Positions 3,953 through 62,482 of a stretch of DNA of 64,000 bases are shown here, in pieces. Each line of letters opens with the position of its first letter. Within the stretch, counting starts at the first letter, position 1. Under the pieces are notes generated by a model. It was not told where the DNA came from, searched no databases, and saw only the letters and a list, made by a program, of their open reading frames with translations. The DNA lies in assembly GCA_020859685.1 (NCBI GenBank), contig JAJBVT010000053.1:11809-75808 (forward strand). Reading direction: 5' to 3'. This DNA is from Rikenellaceae bacterium. Its GTDB lineage: Bacteria; Bacteroidota; Bacteroidia; Bacteroidales; Rikenellaceae. The position numbers and the translations under genes are program-made.

Positions 3953-3984
3953 AAAAAAATACGGGGACCCTCCCGGGCACCCGT
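3953..3984 (-). terminator. Intrinsic terminator closing fimbrial operon 1
   Basis: GC-rich imperfect hairpin ACGGGGACCC-TCCC-GGGCACCCGT (3961-3984). On the minus strand it is followed by a U-run (plus-strand A-run 3953-3960). Confidence 0.6.
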
Positions 3985-4075
3985 ATCTCAACCAATTTTT
4001 AAATGAAAATCAAATTTTTTACATAAAATATTAATAATCAACACTCTTTGCAACTACCCCTAGTACGCAGAGTGT
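3953..4075 (-). ncRNA. Conserved structured 3-prime element, copy 1 of 3 (putative 3-prime-UTR RNA or sRNA)
   Basis: Begins 16 nt after the stop of the 4091-7156 gene. Stem ACACTCT..GC/GCAGAGTGT (4041-4075) encloses the invariant ACTACCCCTAG (4053-4063). Then an AT-rich spacer, TCAACCA (3988-3994) and the terminator. The same layout recurs at 23648-23775 and 52992-53134. Confidence 0.45.
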
Positions 4076-4090
4076 TTTACCTTAGGGTCG

Positions 4091-7000
4091 TCAATAAGCC
4101 GTTACCACGTCGGGAGCGTACCCTCCGCTGTCGATCTGCTGCTGCTCGCCGCTGTCGGGGAACCGTACGCACCGCGTTTTTATATAATAGGGCAGATTTG
4201 TATCCGGCCGTCTCATCGCGTTAGGTTTATACTTATACACCAACTCCCACCTGTTTTCAAATATCTGCACCGTCGACATGTAATCCGTAAAGTAGGAGGG
4301 CATAAAGGTCCAGTATTCCGTGCCGTTGGCCAGCCCGAGTGCCGTATCGCGCTCCTGCGATTTTATCTCCACGAACAGTTTGGCCTCACCGGTATACTCG
4401 TTGCGGCCGTCGCCCCAGAGGTACCATTTTCCCTGCCCACGCACGGGGTCGGACGGATCGCTCCCCTCGTAATACGCCGCACATCCTCCGTTGCTGACGT
4501 CGTAGGTGGGATAGCCGGAAGTGTAATCGTAGAGGTTACCCTGGTCATCGGCATAAATCGCCGTATCGTACCCATGGATCCCCATGGCGGTACTCCAGGA
4601 CATATAATAGGTTTCGAACGGAACAGTGACCATCCCTGTCGTTAAATACTGTGTTTCGAACAGGCAGTCTTCACGGGCCAGAATCCTTCCGGTTTCGGGC
4701 ATCTCGAAGGCAATGGACGGCTGCACATAGGTGGCTATGTTCCCCGAAGCGTTATTCGACTGCTCATAGGCCCATGCTTCCCAACCGTTGTTTACCAGCC
4801 TTCGGTACGATATGGGTACATTACGCGAAAGTATGGTTCGGTTGTACCTGCACAGCAATTCAGTGGCTGTATTGGCGGACACCCAATCGGCGTTCCTGTC
4901 GACCTGCACGTCCTGCGGTCCGAGCCTGACCTCGACCGTTCCGTCGTCGAAATCTCCGGCCACCGTTACCACCACCCTCGCTCCGTCATGTGATATATCG
5001 TTCCTTTCGGTCGTACCGGGATGGTAGATTTTATGAGTAATGCCGTCTATCCGGTAAAAGCCTATCTGTGTGGCCGTCCTCAGGGTGGCCCATGCGGTCC
5101 CGTCGGTCGACCATTGCAAGGCGACACTGCGCGAAGGCTGGTCGTCCCACTGACCGTAGGCCTTTACCGGAACGGAGAGGGTTTGTGTCACCCCGTCGTT
5201 GGCGGCAGGTATCGACAACGGGTCGGTGAGCACCTCGAGCGTACCGACGCTGATGGCCCGGATATAAATTTGCGGCCAGGCACTCCCTGCCACGGTGACG
5301 GAATAGTCAGCCGTTCCCGGCTTTGGCGGTATCGCGCCTCCTTCGGCAAGGTCGGTGCTGATTTCGTATCCGTAACCGGACTGTATATCTTCCCGGAAGA
5401 CGATCCATTTCGAGGTTGCCGGGTCCTCATATTCGAAAACAAGGCTTCGGTCCTCGTCGCTGTCCCGTGCCGGTATGGTAAGGGTAGCGGTACTCGGCAG
5501 GCCTCCGGGCGAGTTGGAGGGCACCGAAGCGGCGTCGATGGCCGTGCTCTCGTACCGGTCCCTTACCCTTACGGGTATATTTGCGGTGAACATACCGGTG
5601 ACTGTTACCGTCCGGGTCTGCCCAGTGGAGGGAATATCCCCGGTGGGGGTGACGGTGGGGAGTTCGATTCCGCCCTGCGATTCCTGCTCTATGGCTACCA
5701 CCACCTCCACTCCGGCCGAGATATGGAGGTATGCCCGGCGGACGGTGAGTCCGCTATTGACCTCTACGGTGTAATTCAGCTCCTGCCCGGTGGAAGGGAG
5801 GGTGGTATTCACCGTTACCCAATCGCACGGGATGTCCGGGTCGGTTTCCGAATCGGAAACTTTAATGCTCCAGCCCGCAGTGTAGTTTGTTTTGATTTTC
5901 AGCGAAGTGGTCCACGGCGAGGCGCTGTAAGGAAGGCGTGTTATTTTTTCGGACAACGCAACGTAGTAGTGTCCGTCCGATATATAGTAGTGCATCTCCG
6001 CGTCATGGTCGACCACCAGCACCACACCGGTATTCTCGGGACCGGCCCCGGCCGCAATATCCGCCGTGGCGTATCCCGCACGGGAAATGCTGTTCACCGT
6101 GAAACCGTAAGTGTGGTTGCGCAGCAGCGGCAGGTACTCGTAATCGCCGGAGGAGTTCGTCGCCGCGATATCCACACGGTAATAGGTAACCGTGCTGCTG
6201 CCGTCGTACAGCCCACCGATTACGAGGTAGGTGTTGTCCGGCCCCGCGGTGGCGTCCCCGGCCGGGGTTTCGAAGGTGTATATTTCGTTGACACACGATT
6301 TGTCGGCGACCTCCGCATCGTCATACTTATAGACAATTGGCTGGCTTACCCGGCCCCAACCGGAGGTTATATGCGGCGCGGTGGCCTTACCCACGGCGGG
6401 GTCTGTGGCCGACGCCCCGGAGGGTTTCCATGTGGCGTCCCAACCTGCCGCTGCGGGAATCGCCGCCCCGCGGTCGGCCGCGTTATAAAGGTGCACCTCC
6501 CTGAGCAGGAAGTTGTCGGCGGCGACATTCACGTTAATGCGCGCGAGCATCCTGTGCATCGTTACGTCCTCGATAACGGTCTGCTTCTCCACCGCACGGC
6601 CCGTTTCCTCGCCCCACATCGGTATTGGGGCGGGAGTTGCAGCATCCCATTTTTGTGAGGATACCACTACGAGACCGCTCGCCAAATCGTTCTTGGTGAA
6701 GGTATTGGAGCCCATACCCGTAACGAAAGCCTCCACCGTGGTGCGCAGATTGGCTATTATGACTATATCGCACGAGGCGGTCTCTTCGAGCCGGGCGGTG
6801 AAACGGTAATCGTTGCCGGATTCGGGGTCGGCGGTTATGGTTTTGGCTTCGGCACGGTACAGGAAATTCCCACCGGAGGGGCCGAACACCAGCACATCGA
6901 CCTCCGTCACCAATCCTTCCTGTGCCGCGGTCATAGCCCGGGTACCGGGGATGGCCGTTTCGGGCGTACCGGTCTGCGGAACCTTTATTTCGAAAGTTAC

Positions 7001-7156
7001 GAATCCATCCTCTTCCGGCAGGGTTTCATCCCCGTAATTATCGCCCTTGATGCAACCCGAAAGATTCATCAGAATACCGGCAAACAGAACGCAAAGCACT
7101 GCCGGCCATCCCTGCCAGCCTGCCGCTCTACTCCTGTATGTACACAATCCGGTCAT
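4091..7156 (-). CDS. Fimbrial tip/accessory adhesin-like lipoprotein (fimbrillin-like N-terminus, BACON-like Ig region, DUF1566-like lectin C-terminus)
   Basis: 1021 aa with lipobox LSGC. N-terminal fimbrillin-like segments (VDVLVFG.., IVIIANL.., PMWGE). BACON-like CDWVTV...RRAYLHISAG...IEQ. C-terminal GGCAAYYEG...TRCVRF. Last gene of an operon of Mfa-type genes. Confidence 0.6.
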   Translation of the reverse strand: MTGLCTYRSRAAGWQGWPAVLCVLFAGILMNLSGCIKGDNYGDETLPEEDGFVTFEIKVPQTGTPETAIPGTRAMTAAQEGLVTEVDVLVFGPSGGNFLYRAEAKTITADPESGNDYRFTARLEETASCDIVIIANLRTTVEAFVTGMGSNTFTKNDLASGLVVVSSQKWDAATPAPIPMWGEETGRAVEKQTVIEDVTMHRMLARINVNVAADNFLLREVHLYNAADRGAAIPAAAGWDATWKPSGASATDPAVGKATAPHITSGWGRVSQPIVYKYDDAEVADKSCVNEIYTFETPAGDATAGPDNTYLVIGGLYDGSSTVTYYRVDIAATNSSGDYEYLPLLRNHTYGFTVNSISRAGYATADIAAGAGPENTGVVLVVDHDAEMHYYISDGHYYVALSEKITRLPYSASPWTTSLKIKTNYTAGWSIKVSDSETDPDIPCDWVTVNTTLPSTGQELNYTVEVNSGLTVRRAYLHISAGVEVVVAIEQESQGGIELPTVTPTGDIPSTGQTRTVTVTGMFTANIPVRVRDRYESTAIDAASVPSNSPGGLPSTATLTIPARDSDEDRSLVFEYEDPATSKWIVFREDIQSGYGYEISTDLAEGGAIPPKPGTADYSVTVAGSAWPQIYIRAISVGTLEVLTDPLSIPAANDGVTQTLSVPVKAYGQWDDQPSRSVALQWSTDGTAWATLRTATQIGFYRIDGITHKIYHPGTTERNDISHDGARVVVTVAGDFDDGTVEVRLGPQDVQVDRNADWVSANTATELLCRYNRTILSRNVPISYRRLVNNGWEAWAYEQSNNASGNIATYVQPSIAFEMPETGRILAREDCLFETQYLTTGMVTVPFETYYMSWSTAMGIHGYDTAIYADDQGNLYDYTSGYPTYDVSNGGCAAYYEGSDPSDPVRGQGKWYLWGDGRNEYTGEAKLFVEIKSQERDTALGLANGTEYWTFMPSYFTDYMSTVQIFENRWELVYKYKPNAMRRPDTNLPYYIKTRCVRFPDSGEQQQIDSGGYAPDVVTAY

Positions 7157-7164
7157 TCTATTAT

Positions 7165-10068
7165 TTATTTTTCCCTTACGCAGCGGGCGCGCTTACTGTT
7201 GGTGCTTCTGACATTATCATTCCATCCTTTATATTCGAGGTCGAGAACCCATGAGCGATAACTGTTACTAGAAAATACTTCGCTGTTACTCCAGTAATCC
7301 CATGGGTAAGCGTATGCGATTTTGCCAAGCTCGATAAAACGCTGGCCCATTTCATAAGTCTCCTCTACTGTCGGAATGTAAAAATTTTTGGTCGTACCGT
7401 CTTCGGTATATGCGGCACATCCCCCGTTAGCGGCACTGTACGTTTCGGTATAGTAAAGAGTAGGAGATCTCTTGGCTTGCAGGGGGTATGGACCGTGAGA
7501 AGTGCTATATGTATAACCGTCCGCCGAGGCACCTGCCTGCTGGTAGGTTTCGGTGTTGTATTTGGAGTCTATCCCCATTGCGGTCGCCCAGAGCATGATC
7601 TCTACCCCGTCGTCTCCGACCCTGCCGTTAGGCCCGGCATCCTCGATTGCGACCACACGGCCGGTGGAGAGAGTCACATATCCGAGTTGCTTAATCGTGG
7701 CCATATTCACGTCGGTCCAAGTCGACTCCGCCACACCGTCGATATAACGGCGGTACTGGCATTTTATATCCCTGTGACCCGCGTCAGAACCGTATGTCCC
7801 CGAATAGTTGTAGTTGCTTAGTATAGTCAGGTTCACGGCCATGGCCGAAATATCAGTAATATCCGGGCTTGTGGACGATACCACCGTGGCCCCGTCCGAG
7901 GTTACCGCCCTCACCTGTACCCATCCGGCGGAATAACTTCCGGTTACTGTCACGGTCAGGTCGCCGCCGTAAGGCAGAAATGCCCGGATGGTGAGGTTCT
8001 CCCCGTTCTCGATGGCCGGATCCGACGATGAGGACCCCGTAATTTCGTAGTCCCCCCACTGGTTGCCGTAATTCAGGACCGTAGCGGACGTCCAGTCCGT
8101 ACCGCTTCTCGACCATTGCAGCTCCACCACGCGGGCGGCCTGGTCTTTCCACTGCTCGAAGGTCCCTATGGTTATCGACTGCTGCACGGAGCCCGCGCCA
8201 GCCGGAATAGTTATCGGACCCGCGACCACGGTACCGGTTCCCCGTATCACTCCGCGGACGTAAAGCTCCGGCCAGCCGGTACCGGTGACGTTTATGTTAT
8301 AGGTCTGGTCTCGGGCGGCAATCGTACTGTTGTCCGTCAGGGTGGAGGCGACGTCGAAATCGAACCCCTCCTGAGTGGCCTGCATGATGGCGACCCAACT
8401 CCCGCTGGTTTTGTCGTAATACCTGAACTCGATAACCCTCGGTATATCCTGCGACCAGCCGGGAATGGTTACGGTCACGGAAGACGGGTTGCCCGTAGTG
8501 TAATTGGCGGGGATAAATGAATTGGCCGCGGCCTGTGTGATTTCCGTGTCGTTTGTCAGGTCCCATACCTGTACGGGAATATCGTCGAACAGACCCGTGG
8601 CACGGATTACGCGGTCCTCTCCGTCGCCGGAGATATTTCCCGTCGGAGTGACCGATATACTTTCCAGATAGAGCTGCGCCTGGTCTATGCGTACGGCCAC
8701 CGCAAAACTCCCGGCCCTGATATGGATATATCCGACCCGGTGAATCCACTGGTCGGTCACGGCGACCGAGTAGTTTAGCGCGGTTCCCGTGGGAGAACCG
8801 TCCGCCGTAAGCCAGGTGCATGGAACGTCCAGCTCCGTTTCGGAACCGGAGACCGTAGCGGTACAACCGCCCGGGAAATTAGTGTCCACCGTAACGGTTC
8901 CCGTCCCTCCGAGTATATCGTAAGACGCGGAGGTGGGGTCTACCCATATCCAGTACTGGCCGTCGATATCGAATACCTCGTCCGCACCTTCGTTCCACGG
9001 AATCACATCGGCATAGATATCCGCATCCGTGGCCTCTTCCTCCCCGGTACCGGGTCCCGAGACCTTGTAGATATTGAATATAAAGTTGTGGTTGCGAAGT
9101 ATGTCCCACTGCTTGCCGTCGCGGTCGATGAACGGAAGCCTGTACCATGTAACCTCGCCGGAGTTGTCATAGATGCCCGCAATAAGCAGCCAGGTCCGGT
9201 CCTCCTCGTCTATGCCGGAAGCGGTATTGCTCCGCTCGCCGATATAAATACCGTCGGTTATCGTCACCCCGTCGGATGAGGCGTAATAGGCGTTATCGTA
9301 AACCACACCCGTGGGAACGGTAGGGCTCGTCGCTTTGACGCTGCCGGCCGAGGACGTCTCAATATTATCGGGGTCGGGAATAGCGTATCCGCTGTCGACC
9401 GTGTTGTATATCGCCACGTCCACAAGTTCGAAATCCTTCTGGTCGGGGTCGCTCCTGTCGAGGTTTATCAGTACCGTTACCGCGGCAAGCGACCGAAGCA
9501 TATATATTGTGCCGAGGTCGGTCACTTCCTCCACGATGGCGACCGGCCCGTACTCTCCCCACATGGGCAGGGGCCTGTCGGCGCCGTATTGTCCGGAAAC
9601 TTCATTGGAGGGGTTATGGGTTGGGTCGTAGCTCGTCCGGTGGACGAACTCGATAGTAAGAAGGTCGCGTAACTGTGCGACCGTGGTACTCCCCGAGGTG
9701 AGGATGGTCGCGTCGAGTTCGTCTTTGAGGTTGGCGAGGACGACCAGAACCTGCTCCTGGCTTCCGCTTTTGCTCAGGGTTATATCGAACCATTCGTTCG
9801 AGGAGTCGATAACGCTCGCCGAGGAGCGGTATTGGAACGTTCCGGCGTCGGCGCTGAAAGAGAGAACGTCTATGGTCTGTATGAACGTGTCGGCGAAACC
9901 GCGTGTAGATACGGAAGGATTGCCCGGTACGCGGATGTGCATCCGCACCACCTGACTGTCCGGATCGACAGGCGCCACATCGTAGCTACCATCCTTAATA
10001 CACGCGGCCATGATAACGACCGTTAAGGATAGGCAGAGAAAGCCTGTGATATTCGACATCCTGTTCAT
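7165..10068 (-). CDS. Fimbrial tip/accessory adhesin-like lipoprotein, tandem paralog of 4091-7156
   Basis: 967 aa with lipobox MAAC. Same architecture as its neighbour (IDVLSF.., LVVLANL.., PMWGE, BACON-like CTWLTA...RVGYIHIRAG..IDQ, C-terminal GGCAAYTE...RARCVREK). Confidence 0.6.
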   Translation of the reverse strand: MNRMSNITGFLCLSLTVVIMAACIKDGSYDVAPVDPDSQVVRMHIRVPGNPSVSTRGFADTFIQTIDVLSFSADAGTFQYRSSASVIDSSNEWFDITLSKSGSQEQVLVVLANLKDELDATILTSGSTTVAQLRDLLTIEFVHRTSYDPTHNPSNEVSGQYGADRPLPMWGEYGPVAIVEEVTDLGTIYMLRSLAAVTVLINLDRSDPDQKDFELVDVAIYNTVDSGYAIPDPDNIETSSAGSVKATSPTVPTGVVYDNAYYASSDGVTITDGIYIGERSNTASGIDEEDRTWLLIAGIYDNSGEVTWYRLPFIDRDGKQWDILRNHNFIFNIYKVSGPGTGEEEATDADIYADVIPWNEGADEVFDIDGQYWIWVDPTSASYDILGGTGTVTVDTNFPGGCTATVSGSETELDVPCTWLTADGSPTGTALNYSVAVTDQWIHRVGYIHIRAGSFAVAVRIDQAQLYLESISVTPTGNISGDGEDRVIRATGLFDDIPVQVWDLTNDTEITQAAANSFIPANYTTGNPSSVTVTIPGWSQDIPRVIEFRYYDKTSGSWVAIMQATQEGFDFDVASTLTDNSTIAARDQTYNINVTGTGWPELYVRGVIRGTGTVVAGPITIPAGAGSVQQSITIGTFEQWKDQAARVVELQWSRSGTDWTSATVLNYGNQWGDYEITGSSSSDPAIENGENLTIRAFLPYGGDLTVTVTGSYSAGWVQVRAVTSDGATVVSSTSPDITDISAMAVNLTILSNYNYSGTYGSDAGHRDIKCQYRRYIDGVAESTWTDVNMATIKQLGYVTLSTGRVVAIEDAGPNGRVGDDGVEIMLWATAMGIDSKYNTETYQQAGASADGYTYSTSHGPYPLQAKRSPTLYYTETYSAANGGCAAYTEDGTTKNFYIPTVEETYEMGQRFIELGKIAYAYPWDYWSNSEVFSSNSYRSWVLDLEYKGWNDNVRSTNSKRARCVREK

Positions 10069-10086
10069 TTCTGCACTTGGTCTCTT

Positions 10087-11025
10087 TTATAATTCTCCCG
10101 GCATACTGCTGCCGTCCCAATCCTTAATACTGTTGCCGACAAAAATCCACCCGCCGTAGCGGTCTGCTTCGTAGTAGAGTTCGTAGATATAGTGTTTGTC
10201 GAGGTCCTCGTCGGTCTCGATATCCTCGTAAGCCTGCAAAATCCGCTCGGTTATTTTATCCTCCGTGCGAACTACGTCGCCTTCGAGGATACGCAGGGTA
10301 AGGTCGTCGCCGATAAACAGACGCTGGAGTTTGAACTCCGCCTGAGCGACGTAGGTGTTTTCTTCGGTGAAGCCCGAATAGGTCGGGATATATGATGCGG
10401 TGGCGTTTCCCGCCGCCGGATTGTTTTCGAAATCATAAACGATGTTGCTTCCTTCCACGGAAACAGTGTAATCGGTACCTTCGATGGTACGGGTAGGCTC
10501 GTCCAGGCCCAGCAATCTGATACGGACGATATGAGTGTCACGGATAAGGGAGATGTCGTAAGTCTTAAACGTACTGTCTACTGTCACAGCATCCATACCG
10601 TGGAACAGGTCGGCGACGCCGGTGTGATTTTCACTCGCCTGTATCGTGAATCCCGTGCGGGTAGTGGCCGACGAGGAGCCGATAACTTCGTACCCCGTGC
10701 CGAAAAGGTTGCCCCATACAACCATTTTATACTCGCCCTCTTCAATATCGAGGTAGAGTGTATTGCCGTCTACCAGCGACGACTGCGGCGTGTCGATATG
10801 GTAGACATAGTTGTCGTACATATCGAAAATGTATAGGTGGACGTCTTCCACAAATTCGCTGAACAGGTCGGTAACCTCTTCAGTATGGTCATGGTGGGTG
10901 AATACGAACCGCAAGGCGACCGGCGGAAGCGTCTCCGGGCAGTCCGAATTATCCTCCTTTAGGCACGATGACAGTCCGGCCGTAAGGGCCAGCAGAGCCG
11001 TGAGCGCTCCTGCGATTTTATTCAT
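10087..11025 (-). CDS. FimB/Mfa2-family fimbrial anchor/terminator subunit
   Basis: 312 aa with lipobox LSSC followed by ..DCP... VHLYIFD motif. Size and position immediately after the major subunit gene fit the family. Confidence 0.7.
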   Translation of the reverse strand: MNKIAGALTALLALTAGLSSCLKEDNSDCPETLPPVALRFVFTHHDHTEEVTDLFSEFVEDVHLYIFDMYDNYVYHIDTPQSSLVDGNTLYLDIEEGEYKMVVWGNLFGTGYEVIGSSSATTRTGFTIQASENHTGVADLFHGMDAVTVDSTFKTYDISLIRDTHIVRIRLLGLDEPTRTIEGTDYTVSVEGSNIVYDFENNPAAGNATASYIPTYSGFTEENTYVAQAEFKLQRLFIGDDLTLRILEGDVVRTEDKITERILQAYEDIETDEDLDKHYIYELYYEADRYGGWIFVGNSIKDWDGSSMPGEL

Positions 11026-11060
11026 GGATTTTTGGCTTTTTCCGTTTACCGGTTTCCCGG

Positions 11061-11085
11061 GGGCCCCGCCCTTAAGCAGGGGCCC
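11061..11085 (-). terminator. GC-rich intercistronic hairpin after the major-subunit gene (possible attenuator or RNA-stability barrier)
   Basis: GGGCCCC...GGGGCCC 7-bp perfect GC stem in the 88-nt gap between the Mfa1-like and Mfa2-like genes. No clear U-run. Confidence 0.3.
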
Positions 11086-11113
11086 TCGGTTCCGGATAAG
11101 TATTTCAGAGTTA

Positions 11114-12481
11114 TTAAAGTTCGCCGGGCATATAAACGCCTTCCCAGTTGAGTACCTGGATAGTTACGTGGATGTATGCATCCGGGTCGAGCGGTTCGGG
11201 ATTCTCCGGCCTTCCGCCGTCTTCCTCGTTCCAGCCGAGGCTGGTCACTTTGGTAATCTCGATATCCCAGTACTGGTTGCGGTGCTGTGAGTATTTGTCC
11301 GCGGTAGTGGTCGGGGGAGTGTTACCCAGGGAGCTGTCGAGGTAGATCCAGTAGTACATCAAACCGCCATCGTATTTGAAAGCCGCTTCGTTGGCGCCGA
11401 GTTGGATTACCGGGTCCCCACTGTAAAGTTTATTGTCGGCAGCCCAGTTCACCAGGTCGCCGTTCGAATCTACGGTACCTATCCTCCAGAAATCGTCACC
11501 GGGATTCCATGTACCGGAAGTCACCAGAGCTCCGTTCGCGTCATACCATACGGTGGGAGAGAACACACCTTTAATCGATGCGTAGGTAGCGTTACCGTAA
11601 CGGGCGGTCATATTACTGTTCTCCATCATATAGGTAGGCTCTTCATGGTTGTAGCTGCCGTCGAGGCCGGTTTTCGACCAGTCGGCCTGAGCCCAGTAGT
11701 TGTTGGCATGCACATCGGCCCAAATGCTGTTGTTCCTGTCGAAATACGGGGTCCTCCAAACACCGGACGCATCATAGGTGGTGAAGAGGTACATCTGGTC
11801 GGGCTGGTTTTTGATACGGTACTCCACGTCCGACATGGTTCCGAGAACCGTCGCTCCGGTGGCGTTCCCGTCGGTTACTTCGATGTCTTCATCGTAGTAA
11901 ACACCTACTTTGGCAACCGACCGACCGAGCTTGATGGTGATGTTGTTGTGGTGGTTCGGAGTTTCAGCCTCGTTCTTGGTCGCGCTTACCACCGTATGCG
12001 AAAGCAGCTCGGAAGCCATCCAGAAAGAGTTGTCGACGGTGAGGGTGTCGTTGAAAGCGACCTCGTCTGCGATGTTCACGATATAGCTTTCGAAATTGGC
12101 GGCCGTCATACCTTTGGTCCACACCGGAGTCATATTCGCGGTAGCGGCGAATATTTTAGGACCGGTGGTGATAAGGGCAGTCTGGCTCAGCACGGAGGGT
12201 GTGAAATTCAGCACGTCTTCGATGGTCTGGGTAGCGACGTCGTAGATGTAGAGGTCGATGGTTGAAACTGTTCCCTCTTCCGTCGTAGGCGCGGTATCAC
12301 CGTGGAACGCGCGGGAGTTTGCGTTGGCGATGCTGATGGTGAACGTAGTGTAGGTCTGTTCTCCCGTTGCCTCGGGTGTGGTTTCATCGGGATCGAGATC
12401 GATGTCTTTGTCACCGCTCTTCGAACAAGCAGCAAGTGTCAGGACAGCCAGAGCTGCCACAAGGGTTGATCTGAAGTTCAT
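11114..12481 (-). CDS. Mfa1-family fimbrial major subunit
   Basis: 455 aa with lipobox LAAC. N-terminal TYTTFTISIANANSRA (Arg-type propeptide site) and IDLYIYD. Paralogous to 59879-61405, including similar C-terminal ends. Confidence 0.7.
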   Translation of the reverse strand: MNFRSTLVAALAVLTLAACSKSGDKDIDLDPDETTPEATGEQTYTTFTISIANANSRAFHGDTAPTTEEGTVSTIDLYIYDVATQTIEDVLNFTPSVLSQTALITTGPKIFAATANMTPVWTKGMTAANFESYIVNIADEVAFNDTLTVDNSFWMASELLSHTVVSATKNEAETPNHHNNITIKLGRSVAKVGVYYDEDIEVTDGNATGATVLGTMSDVEYRIKNQPDQMYLFTTYDASGVWRTPYFDRNNSIWADVHANNYWAQADWSKTGLDGSYNHEEPTYMMENSNMTARYGNATYASIKGVFSPTVWYDANGALVTSGTWNPGDDFWRIGTVDSNGDLVNWAADNKLYSGDPVIQLGANEAAFKYDGGLMYYWIYLDSSLGNTPPTTTADKYSQHRNQYWDIEITKVTSLGWNEEDGGRPENPEPLDPDAYIHVTIQVLNWEGVYMPGEL

Positions 12482-12557
12482 GTTTTAATTGTTTTAAGTG
12501 AAACTTGAGTTGATTGATCTTCTTTTTTGGTTTGGTTAATTACTATTTGGATCTATA

Positions 12558-14231
12558 CTATCTTTTATATCGCTCCATAAGTATTTCGTTTTCCCGTTTG
12601 CATTCCAGCTCTTCGAGATTGTGGGCGGCTTCTTCGGAACCCGCCTCCCGGGCCTGACCCAGATAAAGCGACGCGGTATCCAGGTCCCCCGACAGAAGGT
12701 ACCATACGCCCGTGTTGTTAGCCGCGTCGGGAACGTCCTCCAGCCTGTCGAGGTATCGTCGGGCCGCCGCCATCTCTCCCCGCCGGATAAGCACCGCAGA
12801 GTAGTTGAGCATGGACACGGGGTCGTCGGGATAGAGGCGGATTATGGTCTCGAATATCTGCTCCCACTGCGGCGAACCGTATTCGTAGGATTGCGCCAGC
12901 AGGTAGAGTTCCCTCTGCGACAGCATTTCCGGGTTCCTGTCGGCCAGTTCGCGCGACTCTTCGAGGGTGTAATCCTTTACCGTAAAATCTATCTGGTACT
13001 CAACCCTTCTCAATTGCGGAAACATACCGTCCCTCAGCGTAAGCCATGCCGCGCCGAATCCTTTGAGCCGCTGCTCCTTGCGGTCGGGCTCTCCCGTACT
13101 GTCGATAACTGCCAGAATATCGTCCCGGCGAGCGATATCGCTCTGCTCGACCAACAATCTCAGCCCGTCCCAGTCTTCGGCGACCGAACTGGACCTGATA
13201 ATATTGGCCGGTATGCCGAAGTTCCGGGTTATATAATCCAACAGGGCCTCGGAACGTTCCCGTGCAAGGCGCTCGTTGGTCGCGTAACTCCCGTCCGGTG
13301 AGGCGTAGCCCTCCACGAAGAGCCCTACAATTTCCACATCGCTGTCGGACTGCACCGCTTTGATTGCCGCCTCTATCTTGGAAAGTTCCTCGGGATTACG
13401 GCGGTATGTGGGCACGATTACCGAACGCCCCACGGCGAAATCGAGAAACGCCTGCCCCTGCATCCTCCGGCTTTTCTGCTCCCGCTCCGGCACCACGAAC
13501 GACAATTTGGGCTGAACCTCGTATGGTTCCCGCGGCTGTAATTTCACACGCCCTGCATTTGCGAGGGTATACAACTGCTCTTTCCCGGCCGGTGAGCCCA
13601 CGACCTGATGGATATCGAGAACCGCGTCGTCCATCCACATCCGATAGGGCATCCGCAGGTTGTAGCGCACCAGCGTATCGGTGGAGGTGGTTACCGCAAT
13701 CCTCACGTCGGGAAGATTATCGAGCAGACGGGTGTCCTGAAACTTATAGCGCCGTTTATAAAGCTGCTCCCTCCCCCAGCCGTTTACCATAAGACCGGCT
13801 CCGGTAGCCGTACTGTCCCCGGCGATAAGCTCGGGGATTACGAGCCAGCTCAGCCGCCGGTTCATAACGTCGCCGTCCAGCTTCATCTCGATCTCCATAA
13901 ACAGTTCGTCGTCCTGTTCGGCAATTTCTACCACCGTAACCTTCATCTGCCCGGCGTACTCCGAGCGGTCGACCCTGCGGCGGGATTGATGCCTTTGCAG
14001 AGGAACCGCAAACACGGCCGGGACCGAGAACCTCTGGACAGTCGGACTGCCGGCATCCATTACCTTGAGGTCGCCCAGTTCCATGTGGAGAGAATCGCCC
14101 GACATCCTTATCGTAAAGGATTCTATAACGAATTTACCGTCGTTCAGTTCGATGCGTCCCGTAACCGGCCCGATCTGCGCAAATACGGTGAAGGCGATAA
14201 GTGATAGTATTATGGTATATATATATTTCAT
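12558..14231 (-). CDS. DUF3868-like protein with OmpA-like peptidoglycan-binding domain and C-terminal TPR-like region
   Basis: 557 aa with a signal peptide. OmpA-like block VEIVGLFVEGYASPDGSYATNERLARERSEALLDYI. Sits between the DUF3575 and Mfa1 genes, as in other Bacteroidales fimbrial loci. Confidence 0.65.
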   Translation of the reverse strand: MKYIYTIILSLIAFTVFAQIGPVTGRIELNDGKFVIESFTIRMSGDSLHMELGDLKVMDAGSPTVQRFSVPAVFAVPLQRHQSRRRVDRSEYAGQMKVTVVEIAEQDDELFMEIEMKLDGDVMNRRLSWLVIPELIAGDSTATGAGLMVNGWGREQLYKRRYKFQDTRLLDNLPDVRIAVTTSTDTLVRYNLRMPYRMWMDDAVLDIHQVVGSPAGKEQLYTLANAGRVKLQPREPYEVQPKLSFVVPEREQKSRRMQGQAFLDFAVGRSVIVPTYRRNPEELSKIEAAIKAVQSDSDVEIVGLFVEGYASPDGSYATNERLARERSEALLDYITRNFGIPANIIRSSSVAEDWDGLRLLVEQSDIARRDDILAVIDSTGEPDRKEQRLKGFGAAWLTLRDGMFPQLRRVEYQIDFTVKDYTLEESRELADRNPEMLSQRELYLLAQSYEYGSPQWEQIFETIIRLYPDDPVSMLNYSAVLIRRGEMAAARRYLDRLEDVPDAANNTGVWYLLSGDLDTASLYLGQAREAGSEEAAHNLEELECKRENEILMERYKR

Positions 14232-14270
14232 TATTGTGGGGTATTGATATATGTGGTTTCGTTTCCCGTA

Positions 14271-14858
14271 TTATCTTTTGGATTTTATAAGGTATATAAA
14301 GGACACCCCGACCTTTGTGGGCCCGAACCAGTGTTTGTGGTTCCGCTCGAGAAAGTCGCCGCATTTCCAGCACTCGTACCGGTCGTAATTATAATAGGCA
14401 TAGCCGATTCCGGCCGTAGCCTCGAGGTTCCAGTGCGGGCTGAGGTACCACTGGTAGCCGTAAGAAAAACCGACTCCCGCGCCGTAACCCTCGTAACGGC
14501 TCTCTTTGAGACTGCCCAGCGGTGCAAGGGGTATATTTACACCTCCCGCGTTATAGCTGATGAACATACCGTGGACCCCCAGAAAATGGCCGTCCCATCT
14601 TTCGTAGGGCCAGAAACGTACTTCGGGGCGCACGACCCAATGCTGTATTTTTTTGTTATCCTCCGCAGCACCGAACCGCCACGGATTGTAGGAACCCGAA
14701 ACCTCGAAGCTCGTTTTCCTGCCCAGAGCAATCTCCACTGCCATATTCGGCGTGGTCGTGGCCCAGCCTATGAGATTACTCTTTACGGCAACCTGCTAGC
14801 AGAAACCTGCGAACGGTACTATAATGGGTATAAGGATAGCGGGGATATATTTCTTCAT
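14271..14858 (-). pseudogene. DUF3575-family outer-membrane protein interrupted by one in-frame TAG (codon 21)
   Basis: ATG at 14858 gives MKKYIPAILIPIIVPFAGFC, then TAG (14796-14798), then in the same frame QVAVKSNLIGWATTTPNMAVEIALGRK...YNPW...HWVVRPEVRFW (DUF3575 hallmarks). The track ORF 14271-14744 is only the part after the stop and lacks a signal peptide. Confidence 0.65.
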
Positions 14859-15012
14859 ATTATATAATTCCGGGAGTGAGCCTTGGATTCTCTCACAGTC
14901 TTTACGGGCCTTCGTTATGAAGGACCGCTATTAATTAATATTCTGTTATTATTCTTCAGGTCTTGTATATATACCGTATATGTAATAGTCTCTCGATTTC
15001 GCGGAATAGCTG

Positions 15013-15381
15013 TCAACCGGTGCTGTTTTCCACCAGATTCTTCCATACCTTTTCCGAGCGCATAAAGCCGGGAAAATCATGGCCGGGCCGCCCATCGCAA
15101 TCCTTGAAACAGGGTGCGCACATCACCAGCAGGTCCCACATCGACAGTTCGTAGAACTTCTTTCGAAGGTGCAGCAGCCCTCCAGACTCCGATAGTATAC
15201 CGTAATCGGTAAGCAACGCAAGCGACGTACGTACCATCGGTAACTCACCCTCGGCGAATCCCTTTAACAGGTTGCTCCGTTCTATACCTTTACCCTCTCC
15301 ATCGGCATACATGAAGGATACCACTCCCAAGAGGGTATAAAGGAATTCGAATTGTGGGGTAAACAATACTTCGTCCTTCAT
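15013..15381 (-). CDS. Small conserved protein, first gene behind the invertible promoter (possible winged-helix regulator)
   Basis: 122 aa from the ATG at 15381 (MKDEVLFTPQFEFLYTLLG...). Paralog of 61763-62134 in the same position in locus 2. The longer track ORF (to 15594) would run through the inverted repeat and the promoter. Confidence 0.6.
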   Translation of the reverse strand: MKDEVLFTPQFEFLYTLLGVVSFMYADGEGKGIERSNLLKGFAEGELPMVRTSLALLTDYGILSESGGLLHLRKKFYELSMWDLLVMCAPCFKDCDGRPGHDFPGFMRSEKVWKNLVENSTG

Positions 15382-15418
15382 TTTTCTGCCGTTTCGGAGG
15401 CTTTTTGTTTTACCTGCC

Positions 15419-15435
15419 GTCACTTCGGGAGTGAC
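15419..15435. repeat. Inverted repeat, operon-proximal (switch A)
   Basis: GTCACTTCGGGAGTGAC, the exact reverse complement of 15748-15764. Confidence 0.85.
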
Positions 15436-15466
15436 AATTCGGAAAACATCAATTACTAATCCTGAG

Positions 15467-15474
15467 CAAATGTA
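15467..15474 (-). promoter_or_regulatory. Bacteroides-type -7 box TACATTTG (TAnnTTTG) inside inverton A
   Basis: Plus-strand CAAATGTA. It lies 31 nt from the repeat and reads toward 15381. Homologous boxes sit at the same distance in switches B and C. Confidence 0.55.
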
Positions 15475-15747
15475 AAAAATAATTTCTATTATCGATACAC
15501 CCCTTCGATAAAATTTATATTTTCCGTACGACCTGAATATATAGAACTTATAATTTATTTTAAGAGAATTACTACCCCCGATTAATATATACATCTATAA
15601 ACAATCGATTCTCTTACGCTATTCCTATGCCCTTCCGGGCCCATTATTTTCTTCTGTTCATTACTTTCTGTTTGCCGAATGTTTGGTGAACTCTTCTAAT
15701 AGATACAATCCGTCGCTCTGTTTTACAGGTCGGTACCTATGATTGTT

Positions 15748-15764
15748 GTCACTCCCGAAGTGAC
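15748..15764. repeat. Inverted repeat, recombinase-proximal (switch A)
   Basis: GTCACTCCCGAAGTGAC, separated from the integrase stop by 29 nt. Confidence 0.85.
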
Positions 15765-15793
15765 GCAATCCAGAATCTTTCTTCATTCCGTAA

Positions 15794-17026
15794 TTATGCG
15801 GCCTCGATAAATCTCGAGAGCCGGTTGCTCAGTTCGTCTATTTCGGAGCGTTCGAACGAGGCGAGGTAAATGGAGGTAACTTTCGGGTCGCGGTGCCCGA
15901 GCCCTTCGCCAATCAACATGATACCGTACCCCATTCTTTTAGCTAAAGTCGCCCATGTGTGGCGGGCAACATGCGTGGAAAGGCTGCTTGTTATTCCCGC
16001 CAGCAGGGATATCTCCTTCAACAACCTGTTCTGCCGGTTCAAAGCGGCTTCGTACCCGGATGGATGAGAAACGCCCTCCGCCATTATCGGGAAGACATAC
16101 GGAGACCGGTTTGTCTCTTTTTTGAAATAGCCGATAATCCTCTTCATGGGTTTGGTAATCCTGACCTGCAGAAAAAAACCGGTCTTACGCCTTTTATATC
16201 GGATGGTATCGCCTTTTATATCGGATTTTTTCAGGTGGGCCAGGTCTATGAACGACATACCGCGGGAGTGGTATGCAAACAGGAAATACATCAGTGCGTG
16301 CCGGAGATTCCTTTTTCCCGCGGGAATCTTTTTCCCGAGCGCGACCAGCGAGTTCATTTCCTTTTGGTCGAGCGCCCGTCTTCGGGTCTCGTACACACCG
16401 GTATAAACATCCTCGAAGGGGTTGGATTCACATTTGCGAATCAGGTTCGCCTTAACGGCGCGGTAATATATCGCCCGGATATTTCGCATATAAAAAGAGA
16501 TTGTATTCATCTGGAGGCCATTGTCCAGAAGGTGCCTCTCGAATGCCCTAATCAGTTTGGGGGTTATATCCGACACTTTTAAGTCCTCCGACCCGGCGAA
16601 CGCGGCCAGCTTCTTCGCGGCGCAGCGGTAGGCCCTTGCCGTCCTGTGGCGCTCCTGTTCCTCCAGCTCGCGGCTGAGAAGTGATGAGAACGATAATAAA
16701 TTGTAGGGCGAGAGCGAACCGTTGAATTCATCGACGATATCTCCGAGACCGTACTCCCCCGCAGCGGAAAGTTTCCGCAGGATAGAGGAGAGGCGTTCGA
16801 GGTCGGCGTTCATCATTTCCTCCAATTGCAGAAGGTGCCGGGTCCGCCCGTTTTCCGCATCGCACGGAATAACCAACCTGCGGCGGACAGGGTCCCACTC
16901 TTCGGGGTAGACCGGGTAGCCCCTCCTTAAATCCCGGTATTTACGCCTGAGGATTAACCGGATAAACAGGGTACCCGGTTTGTCCGGCCCATCCGGACTA
17001 CGGAAATGAAATCTGAAACTTGTCAT
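15794..17026 (-). CDS. Tyrosine site-specific recombinase (phage-integrase family), candidate invertase of switch A
   Basis: Catalytic blocks HVARHTWATLAKRMGY and GLGHRDPKVTSIYLA (H-x-x-R, H, Y). Start chosen at MTSFRFHF by alignment with the paralog 62483-63721 (MTSIRFHY). Confidence 0.85.
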   Translation of the reverse strand: MTSFRFHFRSPDGPDKPGTLFIRLILRRKYRDLRRGYPVYPEEWDPVRRRLVIPCDAENGRTRHLLQLEEMMNADLERLSSILRKLSAAGEYGLGDIVDEFNGSLSPYNLLSFSSLLSRELEEQERHRTARAYRCAAKKLAAFAGSEDLKVSDITPKLIRAFERHLLDNGLQMNTISFYMRNIRAIYYRAVKANLIRKCESNPFEDVYTGVYETRRRALDQKEMNSLVALGKKIPAGKRNLRHALMYFLFAYHSRGMSFIDLAHLKKSDIKGDTIRYKRRKTGFFLQVRITKPMKRIIGYFKKETNRSPYVFPIMAEGVSHPSGYEAALNRQNRLLKEISLLAGITSSLSTHVARHTWATLAKRMGYGIMLIGEGLGHRDPKVTSIYLASFERSEIDELSNRLSRFIEAA

Positions 17027-17299
17027 AATGGTAATATTTATAATAAGTGGATGTATAGTCATGCAAATTTACATTATTACAAATAATACGACCTTTTGGA
17101 CTATTTTTTAATCCGTTTTTATAGTAAAGAGCAGCCAACCGGAATTATTACCATGCGGGTTTTGCCAAAATTAAACCTCTTCCGGATATCGAGGCGGGCG
17201 CCAGCCCTAATACTTTGTGCGCCCTCTTAGCTTCCGTGTATGTTTTATCCGGTCGATAGTCGGGAAATGTTTTATCGGACTTAAAATATTTTGCATATT

Positions 17300-23647: not shown

Positions 23648-23775
23648 ATAAAAAGCACGGGGGACCTCACGGCCGCCCGTACCGATGTTTCAACCAGATT
23701 CTTCGAATTTGCATTCGAAGACTGTTCAAATAAATATGATATAAATCCCCGGCACTACCCCTAGTGCCACATCAC
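23648..23775 (-). ncRNA. Conserved structured 3-prime element, copy 2 of 3 (orphan; no upstream CDS)
   Basis: Stem GGCAC/GTGCC (23751-23768) around ACTACCCCTAG (23754-23764). TCAACCA at 23690-23696. Hairpin at 23657-23680 followed on the minus strand by a U-run. Lies 94 nt downstream of switch B. Confidence 0.45.
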
Positions 23776-23869
23776 GGGGATACGTTTGGGTTTTTCCCTG
23801 TCGTCCCCATAGGTCCGGAGGAGTACCGCATTTGCGTCCTTTTCAGTTACAAGTTATGTTTCGATAACC

Positions 23870-24169
23870 GTCACTTAAGGAGTGACGGATAGGCAAACAG
23901 AAACCTGTCGGTACAAATGTAAAAATAAAATTTATTTATCTAATCATAACCGCAAAAATCTTAATTTCCGATGCTGTAATCCCATTCGGGGCCAATGCAG
24001 TATTCGTATCTTTAATCACCGTTGCCCCGGACAAATCCAAGAACCGGATTTCCCGTGTAGATATTTGCGGAATGTTTGTTACCGGTTACGTCGGAAGAAA
24101 TTTAAAGTAACTGTTAACCAATAAATTATAGCCGTAGTCAGATTCCAGTATTGTCACTCCTTAAGTGAC
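23870..24169. promoter_or_regulatory. Orphan invertible promoter segment (inverton B)
   Basis: GTCACTTAAGGAGTGAC (23870-23886) and its exact reverse complement GTCACTCCTTAAGTGAC (24153-24169) bracket 266 bp. There is no recombinase gene or fimbrial CDS next to it. Confidence 0.65.
23914..23921 (-). promoter_or_regulatory. -7 box TACATTTG inside inverton B
   Basis: Plus-strand CAAATGTA 27 nt from the left repeat. The surrounding sequence gtacaaatgtaaaaataaaattt resembles gagcaaatgtaaaaaataatttc in switch A. Confidence 0.5.
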
Positions 24170-51397: not shown

Positions 51398-52378
51398 TCA
51401 ATTACCGCCGCCGAAATTAGATTTTATATAATCAGCTATACCGAACCGCTTCCTTTTTTTGGCTGCCTCCAACTGGTCGACTTCCGTGTTTATTATCGAC
51501 TGTTCCCCCTTTTCGACCAGTTTTTCAAGGAAAGAAAGTATATCGTGGCGATTGTCGGTCATCGGGCTGGCGGCAATTCTATGGTCGGCGTTGTCGACCG
51601 AGTAAAAGACGTGCGGACTGTCGGCCTTCGCCAGTTTTTTCGCTATATGCTTCGACCCGAAAAATCCCATGCCGAGTTTTCGAATTCTATTGTAAGGTAC
51701 GTTCGAATCCGCATCGCCGTGGAAAAGCATTACCGGGCACGGTTCGGAGGCGAAACTTATATCGCGGGAATAGACCAGTATCGCCCCGGCGAACGAAACC
51801 ACCCCCGCGTAGTTGAATCCCACGGGAAGCCGCCCGGCAATCTCCCACCCGTTACAAATGGCGTACTCTCCCTACAGTACCGAAATCGCCCCCGCACTCG
51901 ACCCATTGGCAATAATCCGCCCCGGGTCCACGCCCCAATCCCCGGCATGGTCCAGCACGAATGCCGTGGCGTCGAACAGGTCCTCCACCGCCATATTCAC
52001 CACATCGAGGAACAGAGCCATAAACGCCTTAGCCTGCCTTATCTTCCCTCCGGAGCGTTCCTGTGTCGTCGCACCCCTCTCGGCAAGGCTTTTGAAACCG
52101 AGCCGGTAATCTATCGATACGACCGTGTAGCCGTTTTCGGCAAGGAACTCGAAGTACGGAATATAACCTTTGCCGTCGCGAGAACCGGTAAAGAAACCGC
52201 CGCCGAACATAAATATCACGCAGGGGGAACCGGCGGCATTCACTGCCCGGTACCGGTCAAGATAGAGGGAATCGGTATCTTTAACCGCGTAGAGATATGT
52301 CTCTTTCCGGACGGCTTGCCCGGATAACAGAGTAACGGTAAATAATAATACGGATAGGGATGAAACTGCCTTTCTCAT
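51398..52378 (-). pseudogene. Alpha/beta-hydrolase (esterase/lipase-like) interrupted by one in-frame TAG
   Basis: MRKAVSSLSVLLF... (signal peptide), HGGG-like FMFGGGF, nucleophile elbow GSSAG. Then ISVL, TAG (51872-51874), and in the same frame GEYAICNGWEIAGRLPVGFNYAG...HGDADSNVP...DH (Asp/His of the triad). Confidence 0.65.
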
Positions 52379-52424
52379 TATTGAATAGAATTTATATAGT
52401 GCGGGGTGCAAAATCCCCGCCTTT

Positions 52425-52901: not shown

Positions 52902-52991
52902 TTCCGCCCGTGAAGATAAATGTTTTTTGCTTAACATTATTTTTTTGCAAACCAATGTAAAATCAGCGACCACCGGAAGTATTAGACGGAT

Positions 52992-53134
52992 AAAAAATAC
53001 GGGGCGCCTCCCGGCGGCCCGTACTTAATTTTTCAACCAAATAATTGCTAATTGATGAAAATCAAACTATATAAAAATAAATATTGAATAAAATTCCCGC
53101 CCGTGCGGCCACTACCCCTAGGGCCGCACCGGGA
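52992..53134 (-). ncRNA. Conserved structured 3-prime element, copy 3 of 3, with intrinsic terminator of fimbrial operon 2
   Basis: Nested stems TCCCG/CGGGA and GTGCGGCC/GGCCGCAC around ACTACCCCTAG (53111-53121). TCAACCA at 53033-53039. Hairpin at 52999-53022 followed on the minus strand by a U-run (52992-52998). Starts 14 nt after the stop of 53148-56093. Confidence 0.45.
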
Positions 53135-53147
53135 GAGATATTGTGTC

Positions 53148-56093: not shown

Positions 56094-56121
56094 ATACTTT
56101 TTAGTATTTGTATCCTTACTA

Positions 56122-58704: not shown

Positions 58705-58716
58705 ATCTGCTTATTT

Positions 58717-59637
58717 TCATCCTATGGGCGTAGGGTCGGTAACGTAGTTCCAGCCGGTAACGGTAATGGTAAGCCCCAATTCGGTGTCGAACGTTAGTTT
58801 GAGGTCGAACTCGAACTCCGTATCGAAATCGACCGCATGTCCGATTCCGGCATAGGCCGTAATTATCATCTCCACCAGATTGCCATTGTAAAGGTTTTGT
58901 CCGGTGGTGATATTTTGCAGTTCGAATACGGGCGAACGGTCTTCCGCGAGGCGGAGGGTCTTGACGGAGGAGGTCAGTTCCCCGTCGGTAAAACCGGCAG
59001 TCCGCAGGTAAACGATATCGTCCATGTTCTCAATAATCGTATTGTCGAATGCGTAGTGGGTATTGTTATCCCTTACCGAGAAAGCGTACACGGCAGCCTG
59101 GTCCACCCCTTCGACGGTAAAATTGACCCGGTAGGTGTTCGGCTTTATTATGATTTCAAAAGTATGGTCTGTTTGAGGCAGGACCTGGGCATCCGTAAGT
59201 ATCCCGTGATGCAGGTCTGGTATTTCTTCCGTAACAATACCATCCGAACGGTATTGCAGGGCGACCACAAGGTCGTCGGCATTCGGAGAATCGGTTACTC
59301 CGGTATATGTTTCCCCCTGATTTGTCCACACCACGAAGTGATATGAACCGGGGTCGAGTTCGAGGTAGGCTTCATAAGTCTCCCCTGAAGTATAAGCACC
59401 TCCGTTCCATGTCCCCACGAAACGTTCATACTGGTCGAATACATATATATACACATTATCTATGTTATAATAACCGCCTTCGGCGCGGGTTACCTCCTCC
59501 AGCGTTCTGACTACAATGTGTACCACCGGTTGGGCGTCGGGACAGTCGTCCGTATTGTCCATGACACACGATGTCAGAGCACAAGTCATGCACAGAGCTA
59601 CGAGAGATAACTTTGCCGCAGTATATAGATATTTCAT
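58717..59637 (-). CDS. FimB/Mfa2-family fimbrial anchor/terminator subunit
   Basis: 306 aa with lipobox LTSC followed by ..DDCPD, a VYIYVFD motif, and paralogy with 10087-11025. Confidence 0.7.
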   Translation of the reverse strand: MKYLYTAAKLSLVALCMTCALTSCVMDNTDDCPDAQPVVHIVVRTLEEVTRAEGGYYNIDNVYIYVFDQYERFVGTWNGGAYTSGETYEAYLELDPGSYHFVVWTNQGETYTGVTDSPNADDLVVALQYRSDGIVTEEIPDLHHGILTDAQVLPQTDHTFEIIIKPNTYRVNFTVEGVDQAAVYAFSVRDNNTHYAFDNTIIENMDDIVYLRTAGFTDGELTSSVKTLRLAEDRSPVFELQNITTGQNLYNGNLVEMIITAYAGIGHAVDFDTEFEFDLKLTFDTELGLTITVTGWNYVTDPTPIG

Positions 59638-59775
59638 GTCATTCGGTTCTTTGTTTACCGGCCGGGCCGGTGGGCTTCGTTCTTCACCCTATACCGTATG
59701 GTAAGGATGTATCGGGATAACTGCGGGATGTACGCGGTTATTCCCGGATTGGCTGTATGACGATTGTCCGTACGG

Positions 59776-59855: not shown

Positions 59856-59878
59856 TGGATTATAAGTCATAATTTGAT

Positions 59879-62134: not shown

Positions 62135-62158
62135 TCACCACTGCGGCCGTCGTTTTAC

Positions 62159-62479: not shown

Positions 62480-62482
62480 TTT

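Follow-up and report, generated by a model that had tools for sequence, protein, structure and literature searches.

A putative hairpin-terminator RNA element behind invertible promoters of type V pilus loci in a Rikenellaceae bacterium

Introduction

We analysed 64,000 nucleotides (nt) from an uncultured gut bacterium, represented by a metagenome-assembled genome labelled 'Rikenellaceae bacterium' (contig JAJBVT010000053.1; G + C content ~55%), a stretch referred to below as the window. Its minus strand carries three copies of an element with one common layout: a hairpin (hairpin 1), an AU-rich spacer, the motif UGGUUGA, and an intrinsic terminator with a U-run. An earlier interpretation of the window, made by a model from the letters alone (the sequence-only reading), had described this layout on the minus strand, and the sequence bears out both the layout and its placement. 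Two of the copies follow the last genes of type V pilus operons, and the third stands alone behind an invertible promoter. Gut Bacteroidales alter their surfaces by promoter flipping. Whereas it is known how switchable capsule loci are coordinated, the same cannot be said of type V pili.

Results

Pilus operons and invertible promoters

Both pilus operons of the window run on the minus strand. Operon 1 (4091–17062) extends from a tyrosine recombinase gene (15794–17062) through an invertible promoter, switch 1, to its last tip-protein gene (4091–7156); behind the switch it encodes a predicted winged-helix protein of ~122 residues, DUF3575, OmpA-like, FimA-like, and Mfa2-like proteins, and two tip proteins of ~1000 residues. 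Operon 3 (53148–63721) likewise begins with a recombinase gene (62483–63721), followed by switch 3, and ends with the gene at 53148–56093. Each of these two switches, which adjoin the tyrosine recombinase genes, is a 280–310-bp segment between 17-nt inverted repeats of the form GTCACT-N5-AGTGAC and carries a Bacteroidetes-type −7 box, TAnnTTTG. In switch 1 (repeats at 15419–15435 and 15748–15764) the box TACATTTG at 15467–15474 is in the ON orientation, and in switch 3 (repeats at 62163–62179 and 62459–62475) the box TACCTTTG lies on the plus strand at 62420–62427 and points to the recombinase gene, the OFF orientation. Phase-variable type V pili of the same design have been described in Bacteroidales (PMC12940148). 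Inversion itself is deduced here from the architecture; switch 1 had the same orientation as in the window in both Logan contigs compared (L011 and L012).

Copies 1 and 3 of the element start 11–15 nt past the stop codons of the last operon genes (4091 and 53148). The sequence-only reading had placed two copies directly after the last gene of a fimbrial operon, which holds for these two; it gave the distances as 14–16 nt. It had also linked the element to phase-variable operons, and an invertible promoter does lie upstream of all three copies. What it overlooked is the context of copy 2, which is preceded by an orphan invertible promoter rather than by a gene. Copy 2 sits within a 760-nt non-coding gap, 83 nt behind this third switch (23870–24169, minus strand), whose inverted repeats are GTCACTTAAGGAGTGAC (24153–24169) and GTCACTCCTTAAGTGAC (23870–23886) and whose −7 box, again TACATTTG (23914–23921), faces the element in the ON orientation. 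No recombinase gene adjoins the orphan switch, and no pilus genes lie behind it. That copy 2 lies behind such a switch speaks more strongly than any other finding for the RNA having a function of its own.

Architecture of the element

The 11-mer ACTACCCCTAG (plus strand) has exactly three matches in the window (4053–4063, 23754–23764, and 53111–53121), compared with a chance expectation of ~0.75 even when one mismatch is permitted. The sequence-only reading had noted its identity in all three copies; this stands within the window, but a fourth sequence, an ortholog of copy 2 on Logan contig L019 (see below), has A at the 11th base, and the invariant core is thus the 10-mer CTAGGGGTAG. Nor is it the 11-nt loop that had been proposed. 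Folding instead gives an apex in which CUA forms three pairs with UAG beneath a GGGG tetraloop, atop an interrupted stem of 13–21 bp, with a fourth apical A-U pair in copies 1 and 2. The distance from the 11-mer to TGGTTGA is 57, 58, and 71 nt in the three copies. The terminator, TACGGG-NNN-CCG-N-GAGG-NN-CCCCGT followed by a run of 5–7 T (repeat family D6), has the same spacing in every copy.

In copy 1, hairpin 1 (4040–4076, minus strand) reads AACACUCU-GCG-u-ACUA (GGGG) UAGU-UGC-aa-AGAGUGUU, with the apex CTAGGGGTAG at 4054–4063 and a minimum free energy of −14.9 kcal/mol; the conserved, single-stranded UGGUUGA lies at 3988–3994 and the terminator at 3953–3987, where UACGGG, an inner stem, a GGGA loop, and CCCCGUA are followed by U7. 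Hairpin 1 of copy 2 (23745–23781, minus strand; apex 23755–23764), the copy with the L019 ortholog, reads AUCCCC-(7-nt internal loop)-GGCACUA (GGGG) UAGUGCC-GGGGAU; its UGGUUGA occupies 23690–23696, and its terminator (23648–23683) has a GUGA loop and U5. Copy 3 has the longest hairpin 1 (53095–53138, minus strand; apex 53112–53121; minimum free energy −30 kcal/mol), an interrupted 21-bp stem of the form UCUC-CCCG-UGCGGCC-CUA (GGGG) UAG-u-GGCCGCA-CGGG-c-GGGA, with UGGUUGA at 53033–53039 and a terminator at 52990–53026 that has a GGGA loop and U6. As with hairpin 1, UGGUUGA and the terminator are on the minus strand in all three copies.

An ortholog of copy 2 in a related organism

L019 comes from a related organism and carries the ortholog of the copy 2 locus, next to a rhamnosidase whose protein is 83% identical to that of the window. 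There 343 nt separate the promoter and inverted repeat from the element; the equivalent of these 343 nt in the window is the 83-nt stretch. The 343-nt stretch opens with a remnant of a first operon gene, ~35 codons long (MRNDDKILFGNRF, compared with MKDDNKILFSKRF in operon 3). Copy 2 therefore marks a decayed pilus operon in which deletion is more advanced in the window than in L019. Between copy 2 and L019, identity is 83% in the promoter and inverted repeat, 80% in hairpin 1, and 84% from UGGUUGA to the terminator, but 60% in the AU-rich spacer and 50% both in the switch interior and in the downstream intergenic DNA. Within the hairpin 1 stem an A-U pair of copy 2 is G-C in L019, which also has an extra bulged A, and no change disrupts pairing. 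A kept promoter and a kept 3' module around a vanishing middle are the pattern expected from selection on an RNA expressed from the orphan switch.

Evidence for a selected RNA structure

To assess hairpin 1, we shuffled the 22 nt to either side of an unaltered 10-mer. Compared with these flank-shuffled controls, the native hairpin was more stable for copy 1 (p = 0.018), copy 2 (p = 0.013), copy 3 (p = 0.001), and L019 (p = 0.009). For all four sequences the sense strand, that of the operons, folded more stably than the antisense strand, in line with an RNA that contains G-U pairs. Each copy has its own inner stem in hairpin 1 (GCG/UGC plus CACUCU/AGAGUG; GGC/GCC; UGCGGCC/GGCCGCA), but copies 2 and 3 have similar outer stems (UCCCC...GGGGA and UCCCG...CGGGA). 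The sequence-only reading had called the enclosing stems unrelated but paired; pairing is found in every copy, and the claim of unrelatedness fails for the outer stems of copies 2 and 3.

The terminator is a 12-bp hairpin in which all 48 base-pair cells (12 pairs in each of four sequences) are paired; when the partners are slid against one another, pairing falls to 38–52%. Two pairs of its inner stem are changed on both sides (G-U/G-C/C-G and C-G/G-U/G-C), and its loop is always GNRA, GGGA in three sequences and GUGA in one. In all four the GC-rich hairpin runs directly into U5–U7, and G-U pairing is possible on the sense strand only. Unusually for a terminator, the outer stem UACGGG/CCCCGU does not vary. 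The three paralogs have kept these motifs, although identity is just 25% between their neighbouring tip proteins and 63% between the switches. The shuffle tests, the A-U to G-C exchange between copy 2 and L019, the greater stability of the sense fold, and the terminator covariation all agree with the earlier proposal of selection on a folded RNA, with the qualification that the covariation comes from only four distinct sequences. On this comparative evidence, hairpin 1 appears to be selected as a structure.

Searches for further copies and for known families

An Rfam 15 scan of the whole window at gathering thresholds gave no match, in keeping with the sequence-only reading, which had recognised no named RNA family. 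The best sub-threshold scores were 23.6 bits for L20_leader (threshold 58.7), 22.2 for BTnc060 (228.9), and 19.5 for FopS (56), and low-threshold scans of the individual copies returned only generic matches to the AU-rich stretch and terminator. Neither nhmmer nor an unfiltered covariance model found further copies in the window. Among the Logan contigs from other samples of the same organism (L008–L018, L020, and L022–L024), all those that reach an element (L008, L010–L013, L020, and L022–L024) carry identical copies, and there is therefore no polymorphism to analyse. Conservation is narrow: the L019 ortholog is kept, the operon ends of four relatives lack the element, and the scans described below yielded no real copy. 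Partial resemblances in two of these relatives (L002 and L005) were rejected, as their folds were not significant and they received no score. Judged from the sequences at hand, the element is lineage-restricted, with four distinct sequences from two closely related organisms.

The apex motif in switches and the first operon gene

The 8-mer GGGGTAGT, the same as in the hairpin apex, occurs six times in the window: in the three elements, in one recombinase gene, and once each in switches 1 and 3. The switch 1 occurrence (15571–15578, minus strand) lies ~95 nt upstream of the −7 box; that of switch 3 (62319–62326, plus strand) aligns with it and would be on the operon strand after inversion to ON. 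Both have the same orientation relative to the switch promoter, and ~0.02 occurrences are expected in that much DNA, although the matches were found after the fact and are not independent, as switches 1 and 3 are homologous. The orphan switch of L019 has TAGGGGTTAG at the equivalent place (near position 3300, minus strand). The motif is absent from the window's own orphan switch, and in the relatives that have no 3' element the switches also have no motif. As a separate observation, the motif in switch 3 partly coincides with a TAGTTTTG box.

The first gene behind each switch (15013–15381 and 61763–62134, both minus strand) encodes the ~122-residue protein, the two copies of which are 37% identical. 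It had no Pfam or NCBIfam match. Its predicted structure (predicted local distance difference test score, pLDDT, 62) resembles winged-helix regulators of the Rrf2/IscR type (Foldseek E ~0.02), which would make it a candidate locus-specific DNA-binding regulator. A connection between the operon ends and the switches, at the DNA level or between RNAs, is possible but unproven.

Other variation at and near the pilus loci

Several further observations concern the pilus loci and their surroundings. Logan contig L010 begins ~400 nt upstream of the first gene of operon 3, at about window position 62535 and just past the far repeat of switch 3; a mixture of switch orientations in the sample could account for this start point. 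Across the window and Logan contigs L012 (10368–13214), L014, and L015, the gene before the last in operon 1 (7165–10068, minus strand) encodes either 967 residues, as in the window and some samples, or 948 residues with a different start region, as in others; samples thus carry different alleles of this pilus component. Several segments of 73–83% identity, always ~2975 nt apart, recur in the last two genes of operon 3 (53601–54008 and 56584–56982), from which it follows that both tip proteins contain a duplicated domain. In relatives, the inverted repeats GTCACTTAGGAAGTGAC stand 1.2 kb apart (L002 421–1673; L004 106–1333), and the L002 pair surrounds an AraC-type (HTH_18) gene, meaning that the entire regulator gene would flip along with the promoter. 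A carboxylesterase or S9-peptidase-like gene (51398–52411, minus strand) is split into 141 and 168 residues in the window and is intact, with 337 residues, in Logan contig L022 (2807–3820) of the same study; the split reflects either an error of assembly or a pseudogene at the strain level.

Discussion

A possible regulatory RNA tied to promoter inversion

We regard the element as a new RNA motif whose general kind is known; if it does yield an RNA confined to the ON state, it would add an uncatalogued RNA family from a little-studied and uncultured part of the Rikenellaceae. Our tentative preference, which we regard as possible rather than probable, is that it forms a regulatory RNA at the 3' end of transcripts, produced solely with the switch ON, a two-part module comparable to the small RNA FimR2 of Escherichia coli. 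With a switch ON, RNA polymerase would pass through the pilus genes and hairpin 1 and halt at the terminator, and the two hairpins would bracket and protect a stable fragment of ~125–150 nt. At copy 2 the transcript would be ~250 nt long and have no coding function. The fragment could act through its exposed, fixed G-rich apex and UGGUUGA, by binding a protein or by base-pairing, and expression of other genes would thereby be tied to the ON or OFF state of the switch. Under such a mechanism the lower stem of hairpin 1 would be free to vary while the apex CUA-GGGG-UAG stays fixed. Its starting points, namely the anatomy of the module, its position, its link to the switches, and the selection on its structure and motifs, are those documented above; read-through transcription, fragment stability, and any action in trans are what we infer from them.

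Several results weigh against this reading. In four more distant relatives (L002, L004, L005, and L007) that carry orthologs of the last gene of operon 1 (53–68% protein identity), the element was absent by eye, by nhmmer, and by the covariance model, and in two of the four only 14 nt separate the stop codon from a convergent gene. A strict three-motif pattern had no real match in 185,579 species genomes (one per GTDB species), although this pattern demanded exact motifs and the 11th T and would miss the L019 variant; the single match, inside a gammaproteobacterial coding sequence, was rejected as chance. A strict pattern also had no match in viral contigs, a terminator-module pattern had none in Joint Genome Institute (JGI) metagenomes, and a metagenome scan by the Mfa2-like protein confirmed no locus. 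Such operons therefore do not generally need the module. Only four distinct sequences are known, two of them mutual orthologs. When sequences complementary to GAUUUUCAU and UGGUUGA were sought, the matches were merely generic ones at start codons, and neither a target nor a binding partner of the element was identified. Finally, with a U-rich tract behind it, hairpin 1 might end most transcripts by itself.

This last point leads to the alternative that the element is a compound (tandem) terminator or insulator that stops strong ON-state transcription, its short motifs having no regulatory role of their own. U-rich tracts follow both hairpins, and the second hairpin is a textbook intrinsic terminator. 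Neighbouring genes lie close by: an RNase H gene starts ~90 nt past the terminator of copy 3 on the same strand (by the gene calls of L010, which is identical to the window here), a same-strand DUF202 gene starts ~195 nt past that of copy 1, and the convergent rhamnosidase gene faces copy 2. The orthologous operons of the relatives, moreover, manage without the element. A terminator of this kind, however, needs no fixed sequence, yet the apex 10-mer, UGGUUGA, and UACGGG/CCCCGU are invariant beside genes that have diverged to 25% identity, and the module has been kept behind an orphan promoter with almost nothing left to terminate. We consider this alternative unlikely, though it ranks next after the regulatory RNA.

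In a second alternative, hairpin 1 terminates the operon and a weak promoter in the spacer drives a separate small RNA of ~55–75 nt, with a single-stranded 5' part that includes GAUYUUCAU and UGGUUGA and then the terminator, which would pair with start-codon regions in the manner of FopS and GibS. The FopS model (RF04319) scored 19.5 bits on copy 1, 15.7 on copy 3, and 13.4 on L019, copy 2 not being among the matches listed, and the GibS model (RF04182) matched copy 3 weakly at 16.4 bits; the FopS scores are far under the gathering score of 56 bits. In the printed FopS alignments of copy 1 and L019, the 5' end of the model, GUGUUUUUCAU, is placed on UUGAUUUUCAU and GUGAUCUUCAUG (GAUYUUCAU). 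A candidate counterpart of the FopS seed R1' (GUGUUUUUCAUGGUAUUAGAU), namely GAUUUUCAU or GAUCUUCAU, occurs in copy 1, copy 3, and L019 and is seed-aligned in the printed alignments of copy 1 and L019, and GAUUUUCAU is complementary to ATGAAAATC start regions. Nevertheless, the likeness of the spacers to the FopS consensus was no better than that of dinucleotide shuffles (p = 0.29–0.88), which led us to reject homology to FopS and GibS as unsupported, and the GAUYUUCAU block is lost in copy 2. As for a promoter, the sense strands of the spacers contain −7 boxes with one mismatch (AAAATTTG, TTTATTTG, and TATTTTTA), but these are not conserved between copy 2 and L019, and no exact canonical sigma-ABfr box, TAnnTTTG, occurs on the sense strand inside any copy, which favours co-transcription with the upstream unit. 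A scanner based on sigma-70 and terminator consensus sequences was uninformative for this organism. The fixed apex of hairpin 1 would also be left unexplained, and we regard a separate small RNA as doubtful.

We judge it improbable that the element is a DNA-level site, with (C)TAGGGGTAG bound by a DNA-binding protein such as the ~122-residue protein or an accessory factor of the recombinase and with hairpin 1 incidental or serving as a terminator only. The aligned GGGGTAGT motifs in switches 1 and 3, their counterpart in L019, the shared absence of motif and 3' element in relatives, and the predicted winged-helix fold (weakly, given its pLDDT and E value) would suit such a site. A DNA site, however, has no need of stems of arbitrary sequence that keep pairing, including through G-U pairs that form only in the sense-strand RNA; moreover, the window's orphan switch is without the motif, and the two switch occurrences are homologous and were noticed post hoc.

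That the element is a functionless repeat, either mobile or gene-converted in the manner of a miniature inverted-repeat transposable element (MITE) or a repetitive extragenic palindromic (REP) sequence, or a chance resemblance, is highly improbable: it occurs in several copies in one genome and in none of the relatives' orthologous operons, but its conserved blocks are parted by non-homologous stems and so do not form one inserted or converted tract, the three copies in 64 kb all lie behind invertible promoters, the aligned copies showed no obvious terminal inverted repeats or target-site duplications (no search aimed at them was made), and the element is kept at an orthologous site in another organism with flanks at neutral divergence.

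Returning to a regulatory RNA made in the ON state, we can also imagine a bolder form of it, which we put forward as speculation and regard as doubtful. The RNA, as the sole product of the orphan switch in copy 2 and L019, might coordinate the pilus loci through its GGGGUAG apex, which matches the switch motif, whether by direct contact with RNA read through from OFF switches or by way of a common binding protein. Cross-locus control is known for the capsule loci of Bacteroides, and a cross-locus pilus RNA would be an RNA-based counterpart to it. More generally, should the RNA be produced only with the switch ON and be retained after the pilus genes have gone, DNA inversion would control a regulatory RNA as well as surface proteins, and the 10-nt apex and the 7-nt motif would offer a mutable handle on cross-talk between pilus loci; as a mere compound terminator, the element would be a minor curiosity. 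Of all its features, the orphan switch, left with nothing but the module to drive, most deserves attention.

Comparison with known systems

Like ordinary and tandem intrinsic terminators, the element places a GC-rich hairpin and U-run at the end of an operon, with a second hairpin and U-rich tail upstream; unlike them, it has an invariant outer stem, a fixed apex, and a fixed UGGUUGA, and the whole unit has been kept after gene loss. The tip proteins of Bacteroidales pili are often targets of diversity-generating retroelements, and the hairpins at such targets resemble hairpin 1 in having a 4-nt loop a few bases past the end of a surface-protein gene. Copy 2, however, has no preceding gene, and UGGUUGA and the conserved terminator have no counterpart there. 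We rejected a retroelement at this locus: a repeat search found no pair of template and variable repeats, and none of the 29 window open reading frames scanned against Pfam, which were not all of those in the window, was a reverse transcriptase. On the anatomy of the element we likewise rejected an integron attC site, a REP sequence (alone or as a bacterial interspersed mosaic element, BIME), and a MITE.

FopS small RNAs of Bacteroides are ~65–70 nt long, consist of a single-stranded seed and a terminator, have canonical promoters, and act on the start codon to repress SusC-type mRNAs; one member is 3'-derived (PMC11697453). The element comes from the same order as FopS and GibS, and its second half is similarly an AU-rich single strand with a UUUUCAU-type sequence followed by a 3' Rho-independent terminator. 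FopS RNAs differ from it in lacking an upstream conserved stem-loop and any link to pilus operons or invertible promoters, and in having 12–15 copies per genome in Bacteroidaceae. The element may thus share its plan with FopS-type small RNAs, while at the sequence level membership of that family is not demonstrable.

FimR2 of E. coli, a small RNA dependent on the recombinase FimB, is cut from the 3' untranslated region of the inversion-controlled fimAICDFGH operon (PMC9723502). FimR2 is ~35 nt long, is cut by RNase E, and binds CsrA, whereas the element measures ~125–150 nt and has two hairpins. To our knowledge, CsrA is not known in Bacteroidota. The two also differ in phylum and in pilus type (type 1 in E. 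coli and type V here), and one copy of the element, unlike FimR2, stands alone behind an orphan switch. In position and control they are alike: at the 3' end of a fimbrial operon, after the last gene and before the terminator on the sense strand, with an invertible promoter under the control of tyrosine recombinases, so that expression would be expected in the ON state, and both have been proposed to couple other functions to pilus expression. By this analogy, FimR2 is the closest functional precedent for the element.

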